Of a stretch of DNA of 64,000 nucleotides, positions 30,520 through 41,969 are shown piece by piece; position 1 is the stretch's first letter; every line of letters begins with the position of its first letter. The notes under the pieces were generated by a model. It was not told the DNA's origin. It saw nothing but the letters and a program-made list of their open reading frames with translations, and made no database searches. Both the position numbers and the translations under genes were made by a program. This stretch comes from Nitrospirales bacterium (GTDB lineage: Bacteria; Nitrospirota; Nitrospiria; Nitrospirales; UBA8639): NCBI GenBank assembly GCA_963555755.3, contig OY820905.2, positions 3,424,001 through 3,488,000 on the forward strand, written 5' to 3'.

Positions 30520-31134
30520 ATGTCGACATCATATCAGGTTTTGCGGGGTCCAGAGCATTTTCTTCCCCCAGCTGCAGCCAGTATGGGTATTCGTCTGCCG
30601 GATCCCGGACAAGCTCATATTCATGGGAAAATTGTCCCGGAAGAAGAGGCCTTGGAAGCTGCGGCTCGTCAGTTTTTATCAGCCAAAGTTCCCACGATTT
30701 TCCCAGGTCCCCTTGTCCTCTGGGCTTGGAATGACAAGGCAGCCAAAAAGGCCACGGCGATTAGATATTTATATGAGACATTGAAAGAATCCGTGACACC
30801 ATCCCAGAATGCCATGCTGATTCCCATGCCTGACTACCGGCCCAAATATCCGAAAATTGACCCTGAAGTCGAAATCAACCCCAATCATCCCAATCTCACC
30901 ATTTGGCATAACAAAATTGATGCGTGTATGTTCGTTGGGGTTCACTGCCACCAGGCGAATCTCTCTCTCAAAATTATTCGTGGAGGGACAGACTGTTATA
31001 CGATTGCTATGTGCGCAATGGCTGGCCATGAAGATGCGATGCTGTCTTTTCGCGACGCAACAGCCGAAAAGATCATGAGATTGGCTGATTGGGTAAAAAA
31101 ATTAAAAGGGTCAGTCGAGCCGCCTAAAGACTAA
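30520..31134 (+). CDS. Five-subunit 2-oxoacid:ferredoxin oxidoreductase, delta subunit
   Basis: IPMPDYRPKYPKI.PEVEINPNHPNLTIWHNKI..C.FVGVHCH motif, first gene of the operon. Confidence 0.85.
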   Translation: MSTSYQVLRGPEHFLPPAAASMGIRLPDPGQAHIHGKIVPEEEALEAAARQFLSAKVPTIFPGPLVLWAWNDKAAKKATAIRYLYETLKESVTPSQNAMLIPMPDYRPKYPKIDPEVEINPNHPNLTIWHNKIDACMFVGVHCHQANLSLKIIRGGTDCYTIAMCAMAGHEDAMLSFRDATAEKIMRLADWVKKLKGSVEPPKD

Positions 31135-31259
31135 GGCTTGAGGGTTGAGAAGTCCCGATAAGGGAACTTCCCCATTTATTTAAGATTTTTAACTATGTAC
31201 AATAGCAGAGCAATGATGTTAAAAAAGCCAATTAGCCCTAATCTGAAGGAGGCGAAATC

Positions 31260-32468
31260 ATGGCCACTGAATCGTTAGTTGGAACAAAAAATAAAGTAGG
31301 TCAGACCATCACCGACGCATGGGAAATGATGCATAACTCCGAGCGTTCCCCATGTTTTTTCACGGGGAGTGAGGTCATCAAAGAAGCTATTCGACGAGCA
31401 AATGTCGATGTAATGATTGCCTATCCGATTACCCCGCAAAGCGAAGCGGCGGCCTTAATCGGAGAATTGTTTGCCGAAGGGTATATCGGAGATTACTTCC
31501 GAGGGGAACATGAGTTCGCGGTGATGTCGCAATGTGCGGGTGCGGCCTTTGGTGGCGCTCGAGTCTTTACGACGACCGCTGGTCCGGGAACCATGCGTGC
31601 CATGGAAAACTTCCCGATGTGGTCTGGAGCACGGCTCCCTATTCAGATGATTGTGACCTGCCGCGGTATTAATTCACCCCTCTCTATTCAACCAGACACC
31701 TTAGAAATCTCATATCTCTTAAACACTGGCATGCTGGTGTGGCATGCTGAAACGGCTCAAGATTTCTATGATTGGATTTTGAAAGGGTACATGGTTTCGG
31801 AAGAGCCGGATGTTCATTTGCCGCTGGCGCTCTGTTGTGATGGGTTCTTTGTAACTCATACCAAAGATATGGTGAATCTGACTCCCGCCGAAATGTGTCT
31901 CCCTCCGTATGATCCGTACCGGTCTCCCGTTCCGTGCATGGATATGGAATGTCCTCCCGTTCGGATGATGCGAGACCCATTTGTGATGAAGAGCAATTAC
32001 ATTAGCTATGCCACCCATGCGAGCTGGCAACAGGAAGTATGGGCTGCTATCGAGCGTTCGAGAAAGCACACCATCCGATGGCTGGATGGGCTTGTTGAAG
32101 TCGAAAACCCGAATGCGGAAATACTCATTGTAGCTTCAGGGACCGCTGTTTCTCAGGGACGGGAAGCCATATCACTTTTGGAAGAAGATGGCATTGATGT
32201 GGGACTCGTAAAAATTAAAGTACTGCGCCCATGGCCAGAAGATGAAATTCGGGAAGCCACGAAAAATGCTAAACACATCATTGTGCCGGAGTTTAACGTT
32301 ACTGGTTGGTTAGCGAGAGAAATCAGAGCGACGATCCCCAATACCGAAAGAGTGTATGCCGGACCGCATGTCTGTGGTGGCATGACCCTGCCGCCGGAAA
32401 TTATTGCGGCTGATATCAAAAAAGTTATCGGTATTAAGACTGCTGCGTTGGTTGGGCGGGGAAGTTGA
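31260..32468 (+). CDS. 2-oxoacid:ferredoxin oxidoreductase, alpha subunit
   Basis: AYPITPQSE, FTTTAGPG, DGFFVTH. Confidence 0.93.
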   Translation: MATESLVGTKNKVGQTITDAWEMMHNSERSPCFFTGSEVIKEAIRRANVDVMIAYPITPQSEAAALIGELFAEGYIGDYFRGEHEFAVMSQCAGAAFGGARVFTTTAGPGTMRAMENFPMWSGARLPIQMIVTCRGINSPLSIQPDTLEISYLLNTGMLVWHAETAQDFYDWILKGYMVSEEPDVHLPLALCCDGFFVTHTKDMVNLTPAEMCLPPYDPYRSPVPCMDMECPPVRMMRDPFVMKSNYISYATHASWQQEVWAAIERSRKHTIRWLDGLVEVENPNAEILIVASGTAVSQGREAISLLEEDGIDVGLVKIKVLRPWPEDEIREATKNAKHIIVPEFNVTGWLAREIRATIPNTERVYAGPHVCGGMTLPPEIIAADIKKVIGIKTAALVGRGS

Positions 32469-32518
32469 AAGAAATTAACATTACAAATGGAGAGAAGATA
32501 ATTATAGGAGGCCGCTAA

Positions 32519-33424
32519 ATGAGTAAAGAACGAATAAAAATAGCTCCGGAAATGTATGACATCATGCCGCCGGAATATCAGGACTTAGTTAACAAAGCCA
32601 CGTATGGGAAAGAATCTCGAGGGTGGAAGGATATTGGTACTTCCAAAGAATTGATTGAAGAACATTCGTTATGTGCAGGGTGTCCGGAGTCAATGGCCTT
32701 TCGGTACATTTTAGCATCCCTCCCTGCTCCCGAAGATACCGTGATGGTGGGTTCGACAGGCTGTACCAGTCTAGTTTTCCCCCACATCGCCATTCATAAT
32801 ATTCACTCTCTCTTTGGAAACCAAAACGCGATTGCTTCCGGACTCAAGCGAGCGTTGACTGTGCGGTTTCCTGGGCAGGTCAAAGATGTCGTGGTGTTGG
32901 CAGGGGATGGCGCAACGGTCGATATTGGACTCGATATGACCTTACAAGCGTGGTTCCGCCAAGAAAAGTTCACCACCATTTGTTTTGATAATGAACTCTA
33001 CGCCAATACCGGCGGCCAAGAAAGCGGATTGATGCAAAAAGGGTTTGTGGCAAAGATGGCTCCCGTGGGAAAGAACTTCGAAAAAGTTCGACTTCCTGAA
33101 ATTGCGAGAGAATCCGGCTGTCATTACATCGTGAATTGTACGGTCAGCAAACCAAACCTTGTGGAAAAAGTGATTAAAAACGCGATCTATGTAGCTCGCG
33201 AAATTGGGCCGACCTATTTGCAGCTGTATACTCCCTGCATTCTTGAAATTGGAAAAAACAGCATGGAAGGCCTTCAAGAAATGCGGGACTCGGAAAAACC
33301 CACCGAACGCTTTGCGTACAGAGAATATATCAGTGATCAGGCAAAAGAATTGTTGACCGAAATGGCCGCAAAAGAAAAAGAAAGAAAAGCTGCTGCCAAA
33401 AAGCAACTGGCAGGAAAAGCCTAA
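32519..33424 (+). CDS. 2-oxoacid:ferredoxin oxidoreductase, beta subunit (TPP-binding)
   Basis: LCAGC, GSTGC, AGDG...DNELYANTGGQ. Confidence 0.93.
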   Translation: MSKERIKIAPEMYDIMPPEYQDLVNKATYGKESRGWKDIGTSKELIEEHSLCAGCPESMAFRYILASLPAPEDTVMVGSTGCTSLVFPHIAIHNIHSLFGNQNAIASGLKRALTVRFPGQVKDVVVLAGDGATVDIGLDMTLQAWFRQEKFTTICFDNELYANTGGQESGLMQKGFVAKMAPVGKNFEKVRLPEIARESGCHYIVNCTVSKPNLVEKVIKNAIYVAREIGPTYLQLYTPCILEIGKNSMEGLQEMRDSEKPTERFAYREYISDQAKELLTEMAAKEKERKAAAKKQLAGKA

Positions 33425-33453
33425 CCAGCCAAGGTTGGTCAAGGAGGAACGTA

Positions 33454-34152
33454 ATGATCAAAAAGAGAATCAATATTCGAATGTCAGGCCTTGGAGGGCA
33501 AGGTGCGGTCACAGCAGCTCATGTGATGGCGATGGCGGCTTCTCGCGATGGGAAATTTTCGATCTCCAATCCATTTTTTGGCGCTGAAAAGCGGATGGCC
33601 CCGGCAGAAAGTTATTGCCGAATTGGGATCAACAAAATTTTTGACCGTGGAGAGTTGGTCTATCCTGATGTGATTGAAGTGTTTCACCCGCAAGTCATTA
33701 CATTGGGTAAAAGTTACACGATGCCATTTTATTCAGGCATCAAAGAAGGAGGACTCGTCATCATCAACTCGGACATGCCTCTTCTTACGGATGAAGATGT
33801 GAAGCGGTTGAAGGATTTAGACGTGGCGGTGTTTTACATTGCCGGGACTCAGGTTGCGTTAAAAGTTGCGGGTACCGAGCTTTCCACGAACATGACCATG
33901 ATTGGGTCGGTCGCCGGGATTACGAAATGTGTCTCTTTGAAGGGACTCGAGGGGGCTCTTCAGGAGAGGTTCGGCAAAAAGTTTGTGGCTTCTGGTGGTA
34001 CTGCTACCTTGGATGAAGCCATCAAAAAGAAATTCGCTAAAAAAGAAATGCTGTTAAAGAAAAATATGGATGCTATAATTGCTGCGTACGACATGGCGTC
34101 TGAATGGGCCGAAAAGAATAATTACGAACTAGCCGTCGCCGCCGCGGCATAA
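33454..34152 (+). CDS. 2-oxoacid:ferredoxin oxidoreductase, gamma subunit
   Basis: IRMSGLGGQGAVTA, FFGAEKR. Confidence 0.93.
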   Translation: MIKKRINIRMSGLGGQGAVTAAHVMAMAASRDGKFSISNPFFGAEKRMAPAESYCRIGINKIFDRGELVYPDVIEVFHPQVITLGKSYTMPFYSGIKEGGLVIINSDMPLLTDEDVKRLKDLDVAVFYIAGTQVALKVAGTELSTNMTMIGSVAGITKCVSLKGLEGALQERFGKKFVASGGTATLDEAIKKKFAKKEMLLKKNMDAIIAAYDMASEWAEKNNYELAVAAAA

Positions 34153-34177
34153 AGAAATAGGGAAAAGGTAGTTATCA

Positions 34178-34456
34178 ATGTATAACGTAGCGCTTGTGAC
34201 TGGTGAAAAGTGTGTGGCTAAAAAAGGATGCCGATTGTGTATCATGTATTGCCCAGAGGCGAATACCTTGGATCTCGACGTCGAAAAGATGATTGCCATG
34301 GTGATCATTAACCGGTGTAAGGGATGTGAGTTGTGCATGGTCGTGTGTGATGCGGCCAAACACGAAGCCATTACCATGGTGGCTGTCAACGCCGATGGAA
34401 CATTAACGAGTTCGGCTGGGGAGGCCGCTGAGTTAGGGCAAGCCTATTCAAATTAA
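34178..34456 (+). CDS. 2-oxoacid:ferredoxin oxidoreductase, epsilon subunit (2[4Fe-4S] ferredoxin-like)
   Basis: C.....CRLC...CP and CKGCELC...C motifs. Confidence 0.9.
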   Translation: MYNVALVTGEKCVAKKGCRLCIMYCPEANTLDLDVEKMIAMVIINRCKGCELCMVVCDAAKHEAITMVAVNADGTLTSSAGEAAELGQAYSN

Positions 34457-34871: not shown

Positions 34872-35050
34872 GGACCTGAGAGAAAATAACTTGGACGTCT
34901 CGCATCCCATCTTTGGGCCACCTTTGAACGGGCCTCAATCGAAACACCTTCAACATAGCTGTGCTAGGCCTCGGGTTTTCCTCAATCGTTCCGTCCAAAT
35001 CCGACCCAAATCTTGGCCCGATATTGTCCAAGTTATTTTCTCTCAGGTCC
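34872..35050. mobile_element. MITE-like element, family D (179 bp)
   Basis: 25-bp perfect TIR GGACCTGAGAGAAAATAACTTGGAC with TTA/TTA flanks. Confidence 0.9.
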
Positions 35051-35186
35051 TTAGCGTTTTTTTTGGTATTGATCAAAAGAACTCGCCAGTATATGATTTG
35101 AATGGCTAGCATTTAACCGCAATACACCGACTCCTTTTTTCACAGTTGTGTTCCTCGGTAGCTCAGTTGGTAGAGCGGTCGGCTGT

Positions 35187-35743
35187 AAGGAGACGTGGCC
35201 TGGTGGCAGAAAGGAGAAAATACGCTGATCGTAGAGAATATCTGATCAATGCCGTCTGAAAACGTCGCAAGGAAATTCGCCAAAAAGTAATACTCCATTT
35301 TGGCGGACGTTGTCAGCGGTGTGATTATGATCGGTGTATAGAAACATTGGAGTGCCATCATCTTGAGTCCTCAGAGAAAGATTTTGGAATTTCTAGCAAA
35401 GGGTATACTCGAAGCTGGAACCAAATCCTGAAGGAACTTGAAAAATGTGTGCTCCTGTGTGCCAATTGCCATCGAGAGGTTCACGCCGGATTGCAGCTTC
35501 CACAGGAAACTGTGGTTGAAAAATCGGGTGAATTCAGGGAAGCCTTCCCCGGGTTCGTGACGAACTCGGAATGGGAACCCTGAGCGAAGCCTGCCGAAGG
35601 GTCTCGTGTAGGCAGGAACGTGCAGAGACTAGAGGCTGAGGAACCCAACCCAATAAGGCCTCACAAGCGCCCGACACCCTCCCCTGATTGTTCAGGCGGG
35701 TGATGAGATAGTCCGAGCCCGGTAGAAATGCTGGGGGTACTCG
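35187..35743 (+). ncRNA. Group I self-splicing intron (557 nt, IA-like) at tRNA position 35/36
   Basis: P1 GGCTGT/GTGGCC with U.G at the 5' splice site, P3 TCGGGTG/CGCCCGA, P4 TCAGGG/CCCTGA, R GCAGAGACTAG, S GAGATAGTCC, GAAA-capped P9, terminal G. Confidence 0.93.
35203..35583 (+). pseudogene. Intron-encoded HNH-type endonuclease with in-frame TGA at codon 19
   Basis: GTG 10 nt after AAGGAG. MAERRKYADRREYLINAV*KRRKEIR...GGRCQRC..CIETLECHH...KCVLLCANCHREVH is a zinc-binding HNH signature. Confidence 0.85.
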
Positions 35744-35789
35744 TAACCGACTGGTCGCAAGTTCGAGTCTTGCCCGAGGAGCCAATTTA

Positions 35790-35822
35790 AAAAGGCCATG
35801 AGATAATTTCTCATGGCCTTTT
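35790..35822. terminator. Bidirectional terminator between tRNA-Asn and fdx
   Basis: AAAAGGCCATGAGA / TCTCATGGCCTTTT perfect stem. Confidence 0.85.
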
Positions 35823-35860: not shown

Positions 35861-36277
35861 TCAGTGACCTTCTTTTACCAAATTTTTATTCCACTCTGGA
35901 ATTTCTACGACAAGGTTTTTGGACCCATCCGGAATGCACTGGCAAGCCAATCGAGATTGCAGCGTGAGGGCCGGAGCTTCGTCCAATTGGTCTAACTCGT
36001 CATCTGTGGCTTCGTTACAGGTCTCCAGTCCTTCCTTTACAATAACGTGACAGGTTGAACAAGCGCATACCCCTCCGCACGCATGTTCCACATCCAGACC
36101 TGCTGCTCCCATGGCAATATCCAGAATACTCCCAGGTTGGCCGGTTGGGCCATAGGGAATTTTACTTGGATCAACCTCGACTACCACATTTTCTCCTGGT
36201 GTTTTGATCGTGACGGTGAATGGTTGTGTCGCGGCTTTTGCTTCAATTTGCTCTATATAAGGATTGCTCCCACCCAT
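35861..36277 (-). CDS. fdx: ISC-type [2Fe-2S] ferredoxin
   Basis: HACGGVCACSTCH...SRLACQ. ATG 36277 follows AAGGAG. Confidence 0.92.
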   Translation of the reverse strand: MGGSNPYIEQIEAKAATQPFTVTIKTPGENVVVEVDPSKIPYGPTGQPGSILDIAMGAAGLDVEHACGGVCACSTCHVIVKEGLETCNEATDDELDQLDEAPALTLQSRLACQCIPDGSKNLVVEIPEWNKNLVKEGH

Positions 36278-36388
36278 CTTGTTCTCCTTGTGTCGTATAA
36301 AAAATTTATACGTATTTATAAATTTTATGTTACTTTTCAATACATTATGTTAAGTTGTGTTAAGTTTCTGCAATCGCCGACTGATGTT

Positions 36389-36462
36389 ATCTCCGACTAA
36401 ATTACTCTTGACTAGACGAGAATGTCAATGGTAGTATTTGTTCCGATGGTTTTGGTCGGAGA
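36389..36462. promoter_or_regulatory. isc promoter with candidate Rrf2/IscR operator half-sites
   Basis: TTGACT-N18-TAGTAT (36408-36437) flanked by the inverted pair TCTCCGACTAAA / TTTGGTCGGAGA. Confidence 0.5.
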
Positions 36463-36502
36463 CTTTATCAATCTGTGATTGGAATGAAGCGAAGAGGTTC
36501 CT

Positions 36503-36982
36503 GTGCTGAAGTTCTCCAAAAAGGCAGATTACGCGTTATTGGCCCTCCAATATATGGCCTCGGTTCATGGCAGTGGGGAACTACAACCGCGTGTGGTGAA
36601 TACCAAGGAAATTGCGGAAGAGCATTTCATGCCAGTTGAGCTGCTCGCGAAAGTTCTGCAAACCTTGGCACGGCATCAAATCATTGAAAGTCACCATAAT
36701 GGGCCCAAGGGTGGGTATGTGTTAGGCCGAGAGCCCAAAGACATTTCCGTCGCCCAAGTATTAGAGGCCATCGAAGGGCCCTTGGGCATAACAGATTGTT
36801 ACCACGAAAAAGATCAGTCGTGGTGTGACCAATTGGAACGTTGTAATATCCGAACACCATTGCTCAAAATTCAAGACAGCATTTATAAATTGCTTAACAG
36901 CATGTCGATTGAGGACATGCTGATGGATGAATCGCCTTTAATCATCGTCGAATCTTTAAAGCTAGAAGGAGTGAACTCATGA
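36503..36982 (+). CDS. Rrf2 family regulator (IscR-like)
   Basis: [21 protein letters not shown], three Cys, heads the isc operon. Confidence 0.9.
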
Positions 36983-38193
36983 AGTTACCCATTTATATGG
37001 ACAACCATTCGACCACGCCCTGCGATCCTCGCGTGGTGGAGGCGATGCTCCCGTATTTCACCGAAAAGTTTGGCAATTCAGCGAGTCGCAACCATTCGTT
37101 TGGTTGGGAGGCTGAAGAAGGGGTAGACACCGCACGAAAGCAAATTGCCAAACTGATCAATGCGGATTCCAAGGAAATTGTCTTTACCAGTGGTGCGACG
37201 GAATCCAATAACTTGGCGTTGAAAGGTGTGGCGGAGATGTATCGCGAAAAAGGTGATCACATCATCACGAGCTCGACGGAACATCGTGCGGTGATCGACC
37301 CGGCCAAATCGCTTGAGAAGAAAGGTGTCAAGGTCACCTATCTTTCGGTGGATAAGACCGGCACGGTGAATCCTGATGATGTGCGCAATGCCATCACGGA
37401 TAAAACCATTTTGATTTCGATTATGTTAGCGAATAACGAAATTGGCACCATCAATCCCATTAAAGAAATTGGGAAGATTGCAAAAGAAAAAGGCGTGCTG
37501 TTCCACTGTGATGCGACTCAAGGCGTCGGAAAAATCCCGGTTAATGTCCAAGAGCTAGGCGTGGATCTGATGTCTTTTTCGGCGCATAAGATTTATGGGC
37601 CGAAAGGCATTGGCGCATTATACGTTCGGCGTAGGGCCCCTCGAGTCCGCTTGGCGCCGATGCAGGATGGCGGTGGTCATGAACGGGGCATGCGGTCAGG
37701 GACACTTCCTGTTCCATTGATTGTTGGTTTTGGAAAAGCCGCGGAGTTGTGCGAACAAGAAATGGCAACAGAGTCCGTTCGAATGATGGCTCTGCGCGAT
37801 CGACTGAAGGCCGGCATTATGGGGGCGATGGAAGAAGTCTATCTGAATGGGCATCCTACCGAACGGCTGCCCGGGAATCTGAATATTAGTTTTGCCTACG
37901 TCGAAGGCGAGGCGTTGCTGATGGGGGTGAAGGAAATTGCCCTTTCTTCTGGCTCGGCGTGTACTTCTGCGACACTCGAACCGTCTTATGTGCTTCGGGC
38001 GCTTGGCGTGGGTTCGGATTTAGCGCATTCGTCCATTCGGTTTGGGATCGGCCGATTTACCACAGAGGAAGAAGTGGACTATACGATTGATCGGATGCTT
38101 AAGGCTGTGAATCATTTGCGAGAGATGTCGCCATTGTATGAAATGGCCAAAGAAGGGATCGATCTCAGTACAGTCGAATGGGCGGCTCACTGA
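36979..38193 (+). CDS. iscS: Cysteine desulfurase
   Basis: [29 protein letters not shown]-terminal EWAAH. Confidence 0.97.
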
Positions 38194-38261
38194 ATTAGAG
38201 AAACAGGAAATATAGCCAATCGTGCTTTGCATAATTGTAAAAATCTAAGGAGGGTAGAATC

Positions 38262-38681
38262 ATGGCATACAGCGAAAAAGTGATTGACCATTACAACAAT
38301 CCTCGCAATATGGGGAGCTTTAAAAAGGACGAGGACGGTGTGGGGACAGGCATTGTTGGTGCTCCTGAGTGCGGCGATGTGATGAAGCTTCAGATTAAAG
38401 TCGAAAATGACACCATCGTCGATGCCAAGTTCAAAACCTTTGGATGCGGGTCGGCCATTGCCAGCTCAAGTTTGGCGACAGAGTGGTTGAAAGGCAAAAC
38501 CGTAGAGGAAGCCGGGCAGATTAAAAATACGGAAATTGTGGAAGAACTCAATCTTCCCCCAGTGAAAATTCACTGTTCAGTGTTAGCGGAAGATGCGATT
38601 AAAGGGGCATTGAATGATTATAAGAAGAAAGCGGAGCTGAAGTCACAGGAAGAAGCAACGGCTGCCTCAGCTAGTTCCTAA
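38262..38681 (+). CDS. iscU: Fe-S cluster scaffold
   Basis: YSEKVIDHY.NPRN.G, APECGD, FGCGSA, LPPVKIHC. Confidence 0.97.
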   Translation: MAYSEKVIDHYNNPRNMGSFKKDEDGVGTGIVGAPECGDVMKLQIKVENDTIVDAKFKTFGCGSAIASSSLATEWLKGKTVEEAGQIKNTEIVEELNLPPVKIHCSVLAEDAIKGALNDYKKKAELKSQEEATAASASS

Positions 38682-38712
38682 ATTGGTGAAGTTGGATTAA
38701 GGGAGAAGGAAT

Positions 38713-39066
38713 ATGGAGACGACACAAACGACAGAAACCCCCCTGGTGACCTTGACGGATGCCGCGGTTGAAGAAGTGAAGCGGTTGATGGATGTGCAAG
38801 ATCTCACCGAAGGTGGTCTTCGCTTGGGCGTCAAAGGTGGTGGATGTTCCGGTCTCAGTTACACAGTTAACTTTGATGACAAGATTGGTGAATTTGATAC
38901 GATTTGCGAAAAGGATGGTGTGAAAATCATCGTGGACGCAAAAAGCGCCATTTATCTTGAAGGCATGCAACTCGATTATCAAAAGGATCTTGTGAGTGGG
39001 GGATTCAAATTTAGTAATCCCAATGCCACCAAAACCTGTGGATGTGGAGAATCCTTCTCCGCGTAA
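38713..39066 (+). CDS. iscA: A-type Fe-S carrier
   Basis: GGCSGLSY, CGCGESF, position in the isc operon. Confidence 0.93.
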   Translation: METTQTTETPLVTLTDAAVEEVKRLMDVQDLTEGGLRLGVKGGGCSGLSYTVNFDDKIGEFDTICEKDGVKIIVDAKSAIYLEGMQLDYQKDLVSGGFKFSNPNATKTCGCGESFSA

Positions 39067-39151
39067 AGACCCACGATAGTGGGGAAATGAAAATGATTCG
39101 AATTGGCGGGCATGGTGCAGTTGAACCATGCCCGTTGTGCGAGTGCCGACG

Positions 39152-39877
39152 ATGAGTACACAACCGACATCAGCTGATCGTGTGTCCCGCGAATTGCCCA
39201 TGGCGCGAAATATGTGCTGGCATTGCCAGTCCGAGGTCTCCGGAGAATACTTTTGCGGTCGATGTGTGAAGATTCAACCGCTTTCGAAAGAGTTGGACTA
39301 TTTTACCTGCATGAACCTTCCTCGCCTGCTTACCATCGATAAAAAATATTTGGAGGACACATTCTATTCGTTGAGTCGTACCTTTCATCCGGATTTCTAT
39401 GCCAATAAGGATGAAGGGGAAAAAGCCGTCAGTCTCGGGAATTCGGCACTTCTCAATACAGCGTATCGCACCCTCAAGGATCCGATCCAGCGGGCAGAAT
39501 ATCTGATTCGATTAGAAGCAGGTTCAGTCAAGGATATTCGTTCTGCCCCACCTGCTGATTTATTTGATGAAATTCTGGAGCTCCAGGAGGATTTAGAGGA
39601 GTTTCGTTCGCTATCCGGTGAGACCGATTCAGAGCGTGGACGAGAATTACGAAACAAGCTTCACACGGATCGAGAGACCCTTGAGGTCCGCCAGGAGCAA
39701 CTCAAGGCTGAACTGTTTGGGAAGTTTCAGGAATGGGATGAGCTTCAGGGCTCATCGGACGGCTCAGCAGACACTCGTGGTAAGAAAAATGACGTGATCA
39801 AAGAAATGCAGGAAATACTTTCTAATCGTACGTATGTACGAAATATCGTGAATGATCTCATCGCGGCCACGAGTTAA
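39152..39877 (+). CDS. hscB: Co-chaperone HscB with N-terminal CxxC-CxxC motif
   Basis: CWHC..CGRC, HPD J-domain, N.AY.TL.DP..RA.Y. Confidence 0.92.
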   Translation: MSTQPTSADRVSRELPMARNMCWHCQSEVSGEYFCGRCVKIQPLSKELDYFTCMNLPRLLTIDKKYLEDTFYSLSRTFHPDFYANKDEGEKAVSLGNSALLNTAYRTLKDPIQRAEYLIRLEAGSVKDIRSAPPADLFDEILELQEDLEEFRSLSGETDSERGRELRNKLHTDRETLEVRQEQLKAELFGKFQEWDELQGSSDGSADTRGKKNDVIKEMQEILSNRTYVRNIVNDLIAATS

Positions 39878-39900
39878 ACCTCAATATTGACAGGAAATTA

Positions 39901-41724
39901 ATGGCAAGAATAGTTGGAATAGACCTTGGCACCACCAATTCATTGGTCGCGTATATGGATGGAGAGGTTCCTCGTGTTATTCAAGGCAAACATGATGAGG
40001 CAAAAGTCCCGTCGATTGTTGGCCTGACGGATAACGGCATTATGGTTGGAGAACCAGCCAAGGAGCATTTGGTTCGGGATCCCTCGAGGACGATTTATTC
40101 CGTCAAGCGGTTTATGGGCAAGTCTTTGGCGGATGTGTCCGAGGAGTTGAAATATTTCCCCTACAGCCTTCAAGAAAAAAACGGGGTGATTCGCATTCAG
40201 GTCGGAGACAAAACGTACTCGCCCCCTCAAGTCTCTGCCATGATTTTGAAGGAACTAAAACTGCGCGCTGAAGCCCACCTTCGAGAAGACATTACCAAAG
40301 TTGTCATTACGGTTCCCGCCTATTTCAATGATGCCCAACGGCAAGCCACGAAAGATGCCGGCCTCATCGCCGGGCTGGAAGTGCTGCGAATCATCAACGA
40401 ACCGACGGCGGCATCCTTGGCTTATGGGTTGCAAAAGAAAACACAGGGCATAATCGCGGTCTACGATCTTGGTGGTGGGACCTTTGATATTTCTCTGCTT
40501 AAACTCAAAGATGGCATCTTTGAAGTACTGGCGACGAATGGCAATACCCATCTAGGGGGAGATGATTTGGATCGGCGACTGGTCGAAACTGTCATGAAGG
40601 ACCTCGACGCCAATCATGGGGTGAAGGTGGAAGACCTCCCCGAACTCATGCAAACGGTTCGGTTAGAATCCGAGCGGGTGAAGATTCGGTTATCCAATGA
40701 GGACAAGACGTCAATGTCCATTCCTCTTCCCGATGAGAGGGGAACGTACACCCGTGAATGGTCTCGAGAGGAATTGGAGTCTCTCACCGTGGACTTAGTG
40801 CGACAAACACTCGCTCCCTGTCGATTGGCGATGCAGGATGCCGAGTTGCAACTCAATGACATAGATGAAGTGGTGTTGGTTGGGGGAAGCACGCGCATGC
40901 CGTTGGTTCGTCAGTTAGTTGAAGAACTGTTTGGCCAGACGCCTCATAGCGAGCTGAACCCTGATGAAGTGGTGGCGCTTGGGGCTGCGGTCCAGGCCGG
41001 TATTCTCGCGGGTGATAACAAAGACATGCTATTGCTCGATGTCACCCCGTTGTCCTTGGGCATTGAAACCATGGGTGGGGTGATGAGCACGTTGATTCGA
41101 CGGAATACCACCATCCCGACGAGCGCCAAGGAAATGTTTACCACCTATGTCGATGGACAAACCTCCGTGGATATTCATATTTTGCAAGGCGAACGTGAGC
41201 TGGTGCAAGACAATCGGAGTCTTGCTCGATTTCAACTCAAAGTTCCACCTCTGCCTGCGGCGGTGCCACGGGTAGAAGTGACGTTCCTGATTGATGCCAA
41301 TGGCATTCTCAATGTCAACGCCGCTGATATCCGAACCGGAGAATCGCAAACTGTGCAAGTGAAACCCTCGCATGGTCTCACCGATGATGAAGTCGAAGGC
41401 ATGATCCGAGAATCATTCCAATTTGCCGCTCAGGACATCAAAGCCCGTCAGGTGATTGAAGCCAGGACTGAGGCGGGTGCCATCCTCGTTGCCACGGAAA
41501 AAGCCTTGAAGCGAGGGACCGATCTCATTACATTCGAAGAGGTCCAAGCGATTCACCAGGTTCTTGAAGATCTTCGGAGAGTCAAAGATCAAGATGATCA
41601 TCGCGTGATTCGGGCAAAGATTTCTGATGTCGAAAACGTCACTCATCATTTGGCTGAAGCTTTAATGGATGCCACGCTCAAAGAAGCGCTCGAAAACAAA
41701 AAACTCTCTGAAGTGACGGATTGA
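39901..41724 (+). CDS. hscA: Fe-S assembly Hsp70 chaperone
   Basis: GIDLGTTNS, DLGGGTFD, VKPSHGLTD, isc operon context. Confidence 0.92.
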   Translation: MARIVGIDLGTTNSLVAYMDGEVPRVIQGKHDEAKVPSIVGLTDNGIMVGEPAKEHLVRDPSRTIYSVKRFMGKSLADVSEELKYFPYSLQEKNGVIRIQVGDKTYSPPQVSAMILKELKLRAEAHLREDITKVVITVPAYFNDAQRQATKDAGLIAGLEVLRIINEPTAASLAYGLQKKTQGIIAVYDLGGGTFDISLLKLKDGIFEVLATNGNTHLGGDDLDRRLVETVMKDLDANHGVKVEDLPELMQTVRLESERVKIRLSNEDKTSMSIPLPDERGTYTREWSREELESLTVDLVRQTLAPCRLAMQDAELQLNDIDEVVLVGGSTRMPLVRQLVEELFGQTPHSELNPDEVVALGAAVQAGILAGDNKDMLLLDVTPLSLGIETMGGVMSTLIRRNTTIPTSAKEMFTTYVDGQTSVDIHILQGERELVQDNRSLARFQLKVPPLPAAVPRVEVTFLIDANGILNVNAADIRTGESQTVQVKPSHGLTDDEVEGMIRESFQFAAQDIKARQVIEARTEAGAILVATEKALKRGTDLITFEEVQAIHQVLEDLRRVKDQDDHRVIRAKISDVENVTHHLAEALMDATLKEALENKKLSEVTD

Positions 41725-41753
41725 ATGTTCTGATACGTTCCAAGGAGAATTAG

Positions 41754-41969
41754 GTGGCTCAAGATTTAATGTGGGAAGACGTAGAAGATATTGGGATTCG
41801 GTTACAGGAAGAACATCCCGATCTGGATCCCCTCACGGTTCGATTTACAGATATGCATAGTTGGATTGTTGCCTGGCCGGAATTTAAGGATGACCCAAAG
41901 AGCTCTAACGAAAAGAAACTCGAGGCGATTCAAATGGCCTGGCACGAGGAGTACCAGGACGCTCAATAA
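41754..41969 (+). CDS. iscX: Fe-S assembly protein IscX
   Basis: W.D...I...L...HPD.DP..VRFTDMH.W...EK.LEAI..AW. Confidence 0.93.
   Translation: MAQDLMWEDVEDIGIRLQEEHPDLDPLTVRFTDMHSWIVAWPEFKDDPKSSNEKKLEAIQMAWHEEYQDAQ

Follow-up and report, generated by a model that had tools for sequence, protein, structure and literature searches.

In a Nitrospirales genome the only tRNA-Asn gene found is interrupted, within the anticodon, by a group I intron, which probably splices itself and carries in its first loop a broken HNH nuclease gene, likely that of a former homing nuclease. Here we describe the locus, which lies in a stretch of 64,000 nucleotides that is called the window throughout, together with the evidence on the history of the family to which it belongs.

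When joined, the two exons (Table 1) form a fully paired 76-nt tRNA-Asn(GTT) with G73 and CCA. ARAGORN in intron mode returned the same gene with a 557-nt intron, and its exon boundaries and the split at 35/36 agree exactly with those of the sequence-only reading, an earlier description of the window made by a model without database searches. That reading had also expected standard finders to miss the tRNA, and indeed ARAGORN in default mode, which does not allow introns, found no tRNA in the 64-kb window; the host that it took to be a probable member of the Nitrospirota is represented by a Nitrospirales genome of 4.62 Mb in 2 contigs, 99.44% complete. This genome holds 46 other tRNA genes, which cover every other amino acid, and ARAGORN detected no second tRNA-Asn in it. 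By BLAST each exon has a single full copy in the genome, and none of the 16 loose anticodon-arm matches inspected there (0/16) is accompanied by a tRNA body. Asparagine makes up approximately 3% of the codons in the long frames of the genome. Since this is the sole tRNA-Asn gene in a near-complete genome, splicing is probably essential to the host, as had been proposed for the case that no second gene would be found.

The gene is flanked by what we take, naming the products from their translations, to be a 2-oxoacid:ferredoxin oxidoreductase-like cluster (30520-34456) and an isc-type iron-sulfur cluster operon (35861-41969). The promoter candidate fits in position and is weak in number, one having been found against 0.9 expected by chance. 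Just upstream of it lies a 179-bp miniature inverted-repeat element (34872-35050), whose terminal inverted repeats are long and whose flanks are of the TTA/TAA type and which has 233 hits in the genome, 123 of them full-length, with a median identity of 90%.

Table 1. Features of the split tRNA-Asn gene and its intron (positions in the window)
Feature	Position	Strand	Evidence
Sigma-70-like promoter candidate, 17-nt spacer	35069..35097	+	9/12 consensus
tRNA-Asn exon 1, positions 1-35, last base U35	35152..35186	+	ARAGORN; intron-free relatives
Group I intron, 557 nt	35187..35743	+	Rfam, ARAGORN, covariation
Purine-rich ribosome-binding-like site of the HNH gene; first two bases extend P1	35187..35192	+	Sequence, +1/+2 covariation
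Broken HNH gene in L1, GTG start, in-frame TGA at 35257-35259	35203..35583	+	Frame, family comparison
Internal guide sequence, 3' strand of P1; G35493 pairs with U35	35491..35498	+	Covariation, pairing probability
P2 hairpin, GAAA loop	35500..35515	+	6/6 pairs covary
P3 (35524-35530 with 35668-35674) around P4, P5/P5a and P6/P6a	35524..35674	+	Rfam, covariation
P4; P6/P6a	35533-35539 with 35578-35584; 35585-35620	+	Rfam, covariation
P7 guanosine-binding helix (35625-35631 with 35709-35714), bulged A	35625..35714	+	Alignment
P7.1-type hairpin between P7 and P3'	35632..35662	+	Alignment
P8	35675..35702	+	Alignment
P9.0, GAAA-capped P9, terminal G35743	35715..35743	+	Alignment
tRNA-Asn exon 2, positions 36-76, G73, CCA	35744..35784	+	ARAGORN; intron-free relatives
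Intrinsic terminator candidate, 14-bp stem	35790..35822	+	Sequence

That the 557-nt insert is a group I intron is almost certain. Rfam model RF00028 matches positions 35430-35735 with 69.7 bits (E 1.3e-15; gathering score 50), which bears out the earlier assignment and is the only group I intron match in the genome, and a core of P2, P3, P4, P6, P7, P8 and P9 is present with the G-binding site in P7. An alignment of 57 related cores, out of 81, has 96.1% of its cells paired and two-sided changes in 39 of 56 pairs, against 32-42% pairing when the structure is slid along the same cores, a control over which the real structure has the advantage of having been drawn from the window sequence. Five of the six pairs of P7 are invariant across these cores; the weakest helix is the P7.1-type hairpin, which is 71-76% paired. 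Mapping and alignment recovered elements that the sequence-only reading had described, namely the P3, P4 and P7 pairings, the hairpin between P7 and P3', the GAAA-capped P9 and the terminal G. Introns of subgroup IC3 are not known to have an insertion between P7 and P3', where the window intron does have one. Hairpins at this place are treated as a class marker in PMC3984707, and the P7.1-type hairpin makes membership of subgroup IA plausible.

Approximately 300 nt, over half of the intron, correspond to the broken HNH gene, which the earlier description had not included. Its relatives among GTDB genomes, of which we analysed the best 80 of 250, are found at the same place. In 76 of the 80 loci the HNH is surrounded by a tRNA with an intron, and cutting at 35/36, a junction that was imposed, restores a tRNA-Asn in all 76; in an open test of eight loop positions 35/36 was allowed in 74 of the 76, the other two having been mis-stemmed by the script. 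The remaining four loci are cut by contig ends, with the matching half visible. Rfam matches were obtained in each of the 20 loci, out of the 80, that were scanned. Among 75 frames 51 are intact, 15 contain a stop or frameshift and 9 have a changed motif. Each of the 50 intact members compared belongs by sequence to PHROG 2255 (best E 1.6e-33) and has a Pfam HNH match at E up to 0.1, and their nuclease and zinc-site residues are invariant. The median dN/dS of 0.12 (maximum 0.23; 72 unsaturated pairs of 1225) indicates purifying selection. A predicted model of one member (pLDDT 87.5) has HNH nucleases as its top, weak matches among solved structures (best Z 4.7), and Foldseek gave no match to it at E up to 0.001. 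None of the 75 frames stops before the guide sequence, all of them running 3-84 codons into the ribozyme, so that translation and folding would exclude each other.

The same HNH also occurs with a different intron architecture. Six of the 81 cores (L071, L078, L082, L092, L100 and L103; four titled Omnitrophota), which share the HNH and the site, lack the hairpin between P7 and P3', so the nuclease rides in two ribozyme types. Loci titled Patescibacteria share site, HNH and core, and lie outside the clade that holds the window core.

Free-standing relatives of the nuclease are found in phages, where they accompany the same tRNA. Among the best 80 of at least 585 viral loci, 77 have tRNAs and 63 have a tRNA-Asn within 1.2 kb. 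After de-duplication to 57 loci, 45 of which have at least three tRNAs, the adjacent tRNA is tRNA-Asn in 36 of the 45, against a mean of 14.4 and a maximum of 26 in 5000 shuffles that ignore relatedness. In Bacillus phage Bastille two tRNA-Asn genes enclose the nuclease gene (product AEQ34205.1), and in Klebsiella phage Muenster it lies directly behind one; the tRNAs are unnamed in the record of a Vibrio phage. As the phage nucleases adjoin tRNA-Asn, they point to the HNH family being a homing nuclease for the tRNA-Asn gene. The empty site has a palindromic core, GTTAAC, and there are relatives with tandem domains; both suggest that the enzyme may act as a homodimer. Most of the tRNA-Asn alleles beside phage nucleases do not have the G31-C39 pair that is common in intron hosts, from which we draw no conclusion on 'immune' alleles. 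On viral contig L207 (1538-1660) a tRNA-Asn contains a 48-nt insert at 35/36 that ends in G, is far too short for a group I core and lies 14 nt behind an HNH relative. The only exact 12-15-nt match to the empty site in the window genome lies near position 4290420 of G000:C1, in a gene for a chain-length-determinant-like protein; considered post hoc as a self-target of the nuclease, this 15-nt match was left as chance.

Within the Nitrospirota the intron is scattered. Among 60 relatives of the window genome 52 gave a match and 8 carry the intron; all 21 of the others that were checked are intron-free and read straight through the same junction, and they include all 3 genomes of the same genus with a match. 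The intron core was matched in 18 of 250 genomes of the phylum, a search of the core alone, independent of tRNA presence, that misses divergent cores. The 35/36 site is moreover filled in genomes titled to more than 15 phyla (titles follow the submitters, and bins may be mixed), and with these counts the view of the sequence-only reading, that the site is rare outside Patescibacteria, is not supported. On an iscS+metK tree of 31 chosen genomes, 18 with and 13 without the intron, no fewer than 8 changes are required to explain where it occurs, and G009 and G019, both intron-free, fall within groups of carriers.

The introns of these relatives differ in how much of the HNH gene is left. In the host family, loop L1 is 305-306 nt long, with a full-length but damaged gene, in the window genome (G000), G022 and G034; it retains 97 nt with both ends of the gene in G242 and G260, and a remnant of 30-33 nt in six genomes of genus g4. 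Further lengths in the series are 67-73 nt and 14 nt, and in the sister family full-length forms occur as well as forms of 6-7 nt. The series follows the order expected from the Goddard-Burt cycle, in which the nuclease decays once empty alleles are gone, as described in PMC3984707.

An old intron, inherited vertically in the Nitrospirales, patchy through repeated loss and with the HNH kept for instance as a splicing helper, would account for part of this, and the nesting of intron-free alleles inside carriers agrees with it. Host-like descent within the Nitrospirales is not rejected by AU tests (p-AU 0.061, 0.23 and 0.107). The divergence of the HNH at fourfold sites between G000 and G022 (17/26) equals that of host iscS (113/166), and 71 of 97 HNH residues are kept between the two, which argues for selection on the gene until long after the hosts split and for a late break. 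By the same tests and divergence, which fit host descent, a recent homing event into the window lineage is not shown. A recent transfer between G000 and genus g4, considered since their cores are 93% and their RNase P RNAs 81-84% identical, was likewise found unsupported (p-AU 0.061). Against vertical inheritance as the whole history, however, the AU test rejects a single clade of Nitrospirota cores (18 rows; p-AU 0.00055), and the window core shares 89-90% identity with cores titled Acetothermia and Rokubacteria. The many relatives that keep the intron in an apparent tRNA-Asn locus after deletion of the HNH gene argue that the HNH is not needed for splicing, its nuclease and zinc-site residues are the ones kept in every intact member, and the free-standing phage relatives follow tRNA-Asn where there is no intron. 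We therefore regard purely vertical descent with a helper HNH as improbable and favour a former homing nuclease.

The window copy of this nuclease is interrupted by an in-frame stop at codon 19, beyond which the frame continues through the guide sequence, P2, P3 and P4. Taken alone it falls under the Pfam cut-off (E 0.074), and it keeps all the invariant Cys, His and Asn residues of the family. This retention might suggest that the protein is still made by read-through of TGA or from a downstream start and that the element is mobile, and in a contig of a near-identical strain an arginine codon occupies the position of the stop, which may be recent. That contig, however, also has a one-base insertion and a depth of 4.3 and may be in error; codon 19 encodes Arg, Gln or Lys in 42 of the 50 intact members and never Trp or Cys; invariant N-terminal residues precede the stop; and five further changes, seen in 0/50 intact members, fall at columns conserved in 38-50 of them. 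Continued expression is thus very unlikely, and we infer that the window copy would stand at the first step of decay, competent for splicing and with its self-mobility lost.

The splice site is defined by a long-range P1, in which the end of the exon pairs with the guide 300 nt downstream of the splice site. The U.G wobble described by the sequence-only reading was found again here as U35-G35493, with a pairing probability of 0.99, and the duplex has -10.4 kcal/mol, against -4.5 to -5.3 at three other GCAG sites. A guide was found automatically in 75 of 77 introns and by eye in the other two, and in all 75 its GCAG is paired to the last four bases of exon 1, up to U35. Watson-Crick pairs join intron positions +1 and +2 to the two bases that precede the guide G in 65 and 52 of the 75 introns (41 and 27 in shuffles), counts that were reached in none of 5000 shuffles, which ignore relatedness. 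A third pair of this extension occurs in 7 of 75 introns, below chance. Exon position 31 does not covary with the guide (A.C in 5/75), so P1 is unsupported beyond four exon bases. A local P1 at 35206 was considered as well, and is weaker and not conserved. By group I chemistry, free guanosine bound at P7 would attack after U35, the freed exon would attack after G35743, and the ligated tRNA would regain its anticodon loop. Dependence of splicing on host or partner proteins, conceivable because a 300-nt P1 loop could slow folding, or splicing at 33/34 to give a Thr anticodon, which the U/G rule alone permits in 19 of 76 relatives, has little to recommend it, since guide pairing decides for 35/36 over 33/34, 35/36 alone obeys the U and G rule in this genome, intron-free relatives are tRNA-Asn with the same body, and three tRNA-Thr genes already exist elsewhere in the genome.

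Public RNA runs contain the intron stretch in the form of contigs, among which the exon-exon junction of the window organism was absent (four runs compared with the window and four with the g4 locus). Joined forms in RNA contigs differ in sequence and occur in a DNA run too; it is the ribozyme fold, together with the need of the cell for tRNA-Asn, that speaks for splicing. In run X2, from one study and as contigs only, contigs cover the intron and not two flanking bins, to which no weight was given. The runs that contain the window organism also contain a g4-type relative whose intron core is 93% identical, and one X2 contig, matching 35148-35786, joins a g4-type upstream flank to the window intron. 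This contig is probably an assembly chimera formed through the shared exon rather than a sign of intron transfer, given that in two further runs the depth of the intron goes with that of the G000-type flank (184 vs 4; 57 vs 14.5).

A self-splicing intron that carries the broken gene of a former homing nuclease, the reading of the locus that we consider likely, leads to the origin of the composite. Collaborative homing, as described in PMC3984707, starts from a nuclease gene on its own and an intron without an ORF that have the same target and later fuse, and according to that review phage introns have been seen only in protein-coding genes. The examples given there are phage protein genes, whereas here the target is a tRNA gene; viral contig L208 (869-1149) has both parts, a free nuclease next to an intron that lacks an ORF and occupies the same 35/36 site, and a second, similar phage case, L212, gave no Rfam hit. 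Intron-borne and free HNH sequences are split on one branch (support 78, 98 columns) of a tree for which similarity to the query had governed the choice of either set, and as this tree is unrooted the direction of capture can only be inferred. We consider the chances evenly balanced that a free phage nuclease for tRNA-Asn was captured once into the P1 loop and then spread the intron over more than 15 phyla, with all stages surviving: the free nuclease by tRNA-Asn, the free nuclease with an ORF-less intron (L208), the intact composite, the broken form of the window, the deleted form and precise loss. Judging from the family, an intact nuclease would cut the empty allele and repair would copy the intron in; with targets exhausted, the HNH gene would decay and be deleted, and the intron could be lost precisely. 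If true, this would constitute a complete chromosomal record of the birth and death of a mobile intron, and the nuclease would be a new one aimed at the near-palindromic anticodon arm of tRNA-Asn.

The 35/36 insertion site in tRNA-Asn appears to have been published already. Nakagawa, Amikura, Omae and Suzuki reportedly described in 2025 group I introns, mostly IA, at this same site within the tRNA-Asn anticodon, missed by annotation and self-splicing in vitro; their hosts are said to be Patescibacteria, with rare cases in other phyla, and most to be without endonuclease genes, whereas the window host belongs to the Nitrospirales and the window family carries an HNH across many phyla. Our literature search, outside which most subscription papers lay, found no paper on an HNH gene in a tRNA-Asn intron. 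Williams 2020 (10.1101/2020.01.27.920355) raised the intron-split bacterial tRNA classes from four to 21 and noted that genes, complete or partial, may be present in introns longer than about 400 bp; by its naming rule the window site would be Asn.4Ug, and the available part of its text, in which Table 1 is an image, contains no mention of 'Asn', 'HNH', 'homing' or 'Nitrospir'. The classical IC3 tRNA introns listed in that part (Leu.3Ug, Arg.5Ug, fMet.2Ug, Ile2.5Ug) resemble the window intron in a short P1 with exon bases, P2, a compact core and GNRA-capped P2 and P9, whereas the window intron differs in its position at 35/36, its extra hairpin between P7 and P3' and its gene in L1. The tRNA-fMet intron of cyanobacteria that encodes I-Ssp6803I, reported by Bonocora and Shub in 2001, is likewise an anticodon-loop group I intron with its own endonuclease aimed there; that enzyme, however, is of the PD-(D/E)XK type and acts in another tRNA at another position, while the window has a broken gene of the HNH type. 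PMC11270868, in its available part, covers rRNA inserts only.

As the window copy is a decayed member and its insertion site is apparently published, the surprise lies in the history of the family rather than in the locus. Standard finders report no tRNA-Asn in such genomes, so that tRNA sets and completeness calls would be wrong for a visible share of the Nitrospirales and of other uncultured groups, and the window organism would depend on a ribozyme for an essential part of decoding. A single bacterial family contains damaged and shortened forms as well as losses, and phage relatives of the nuclease accompany the same tRNA, so that both an origin by collaborative homing and the cycle of decay could be put to the test with a small number of synthetic genes.
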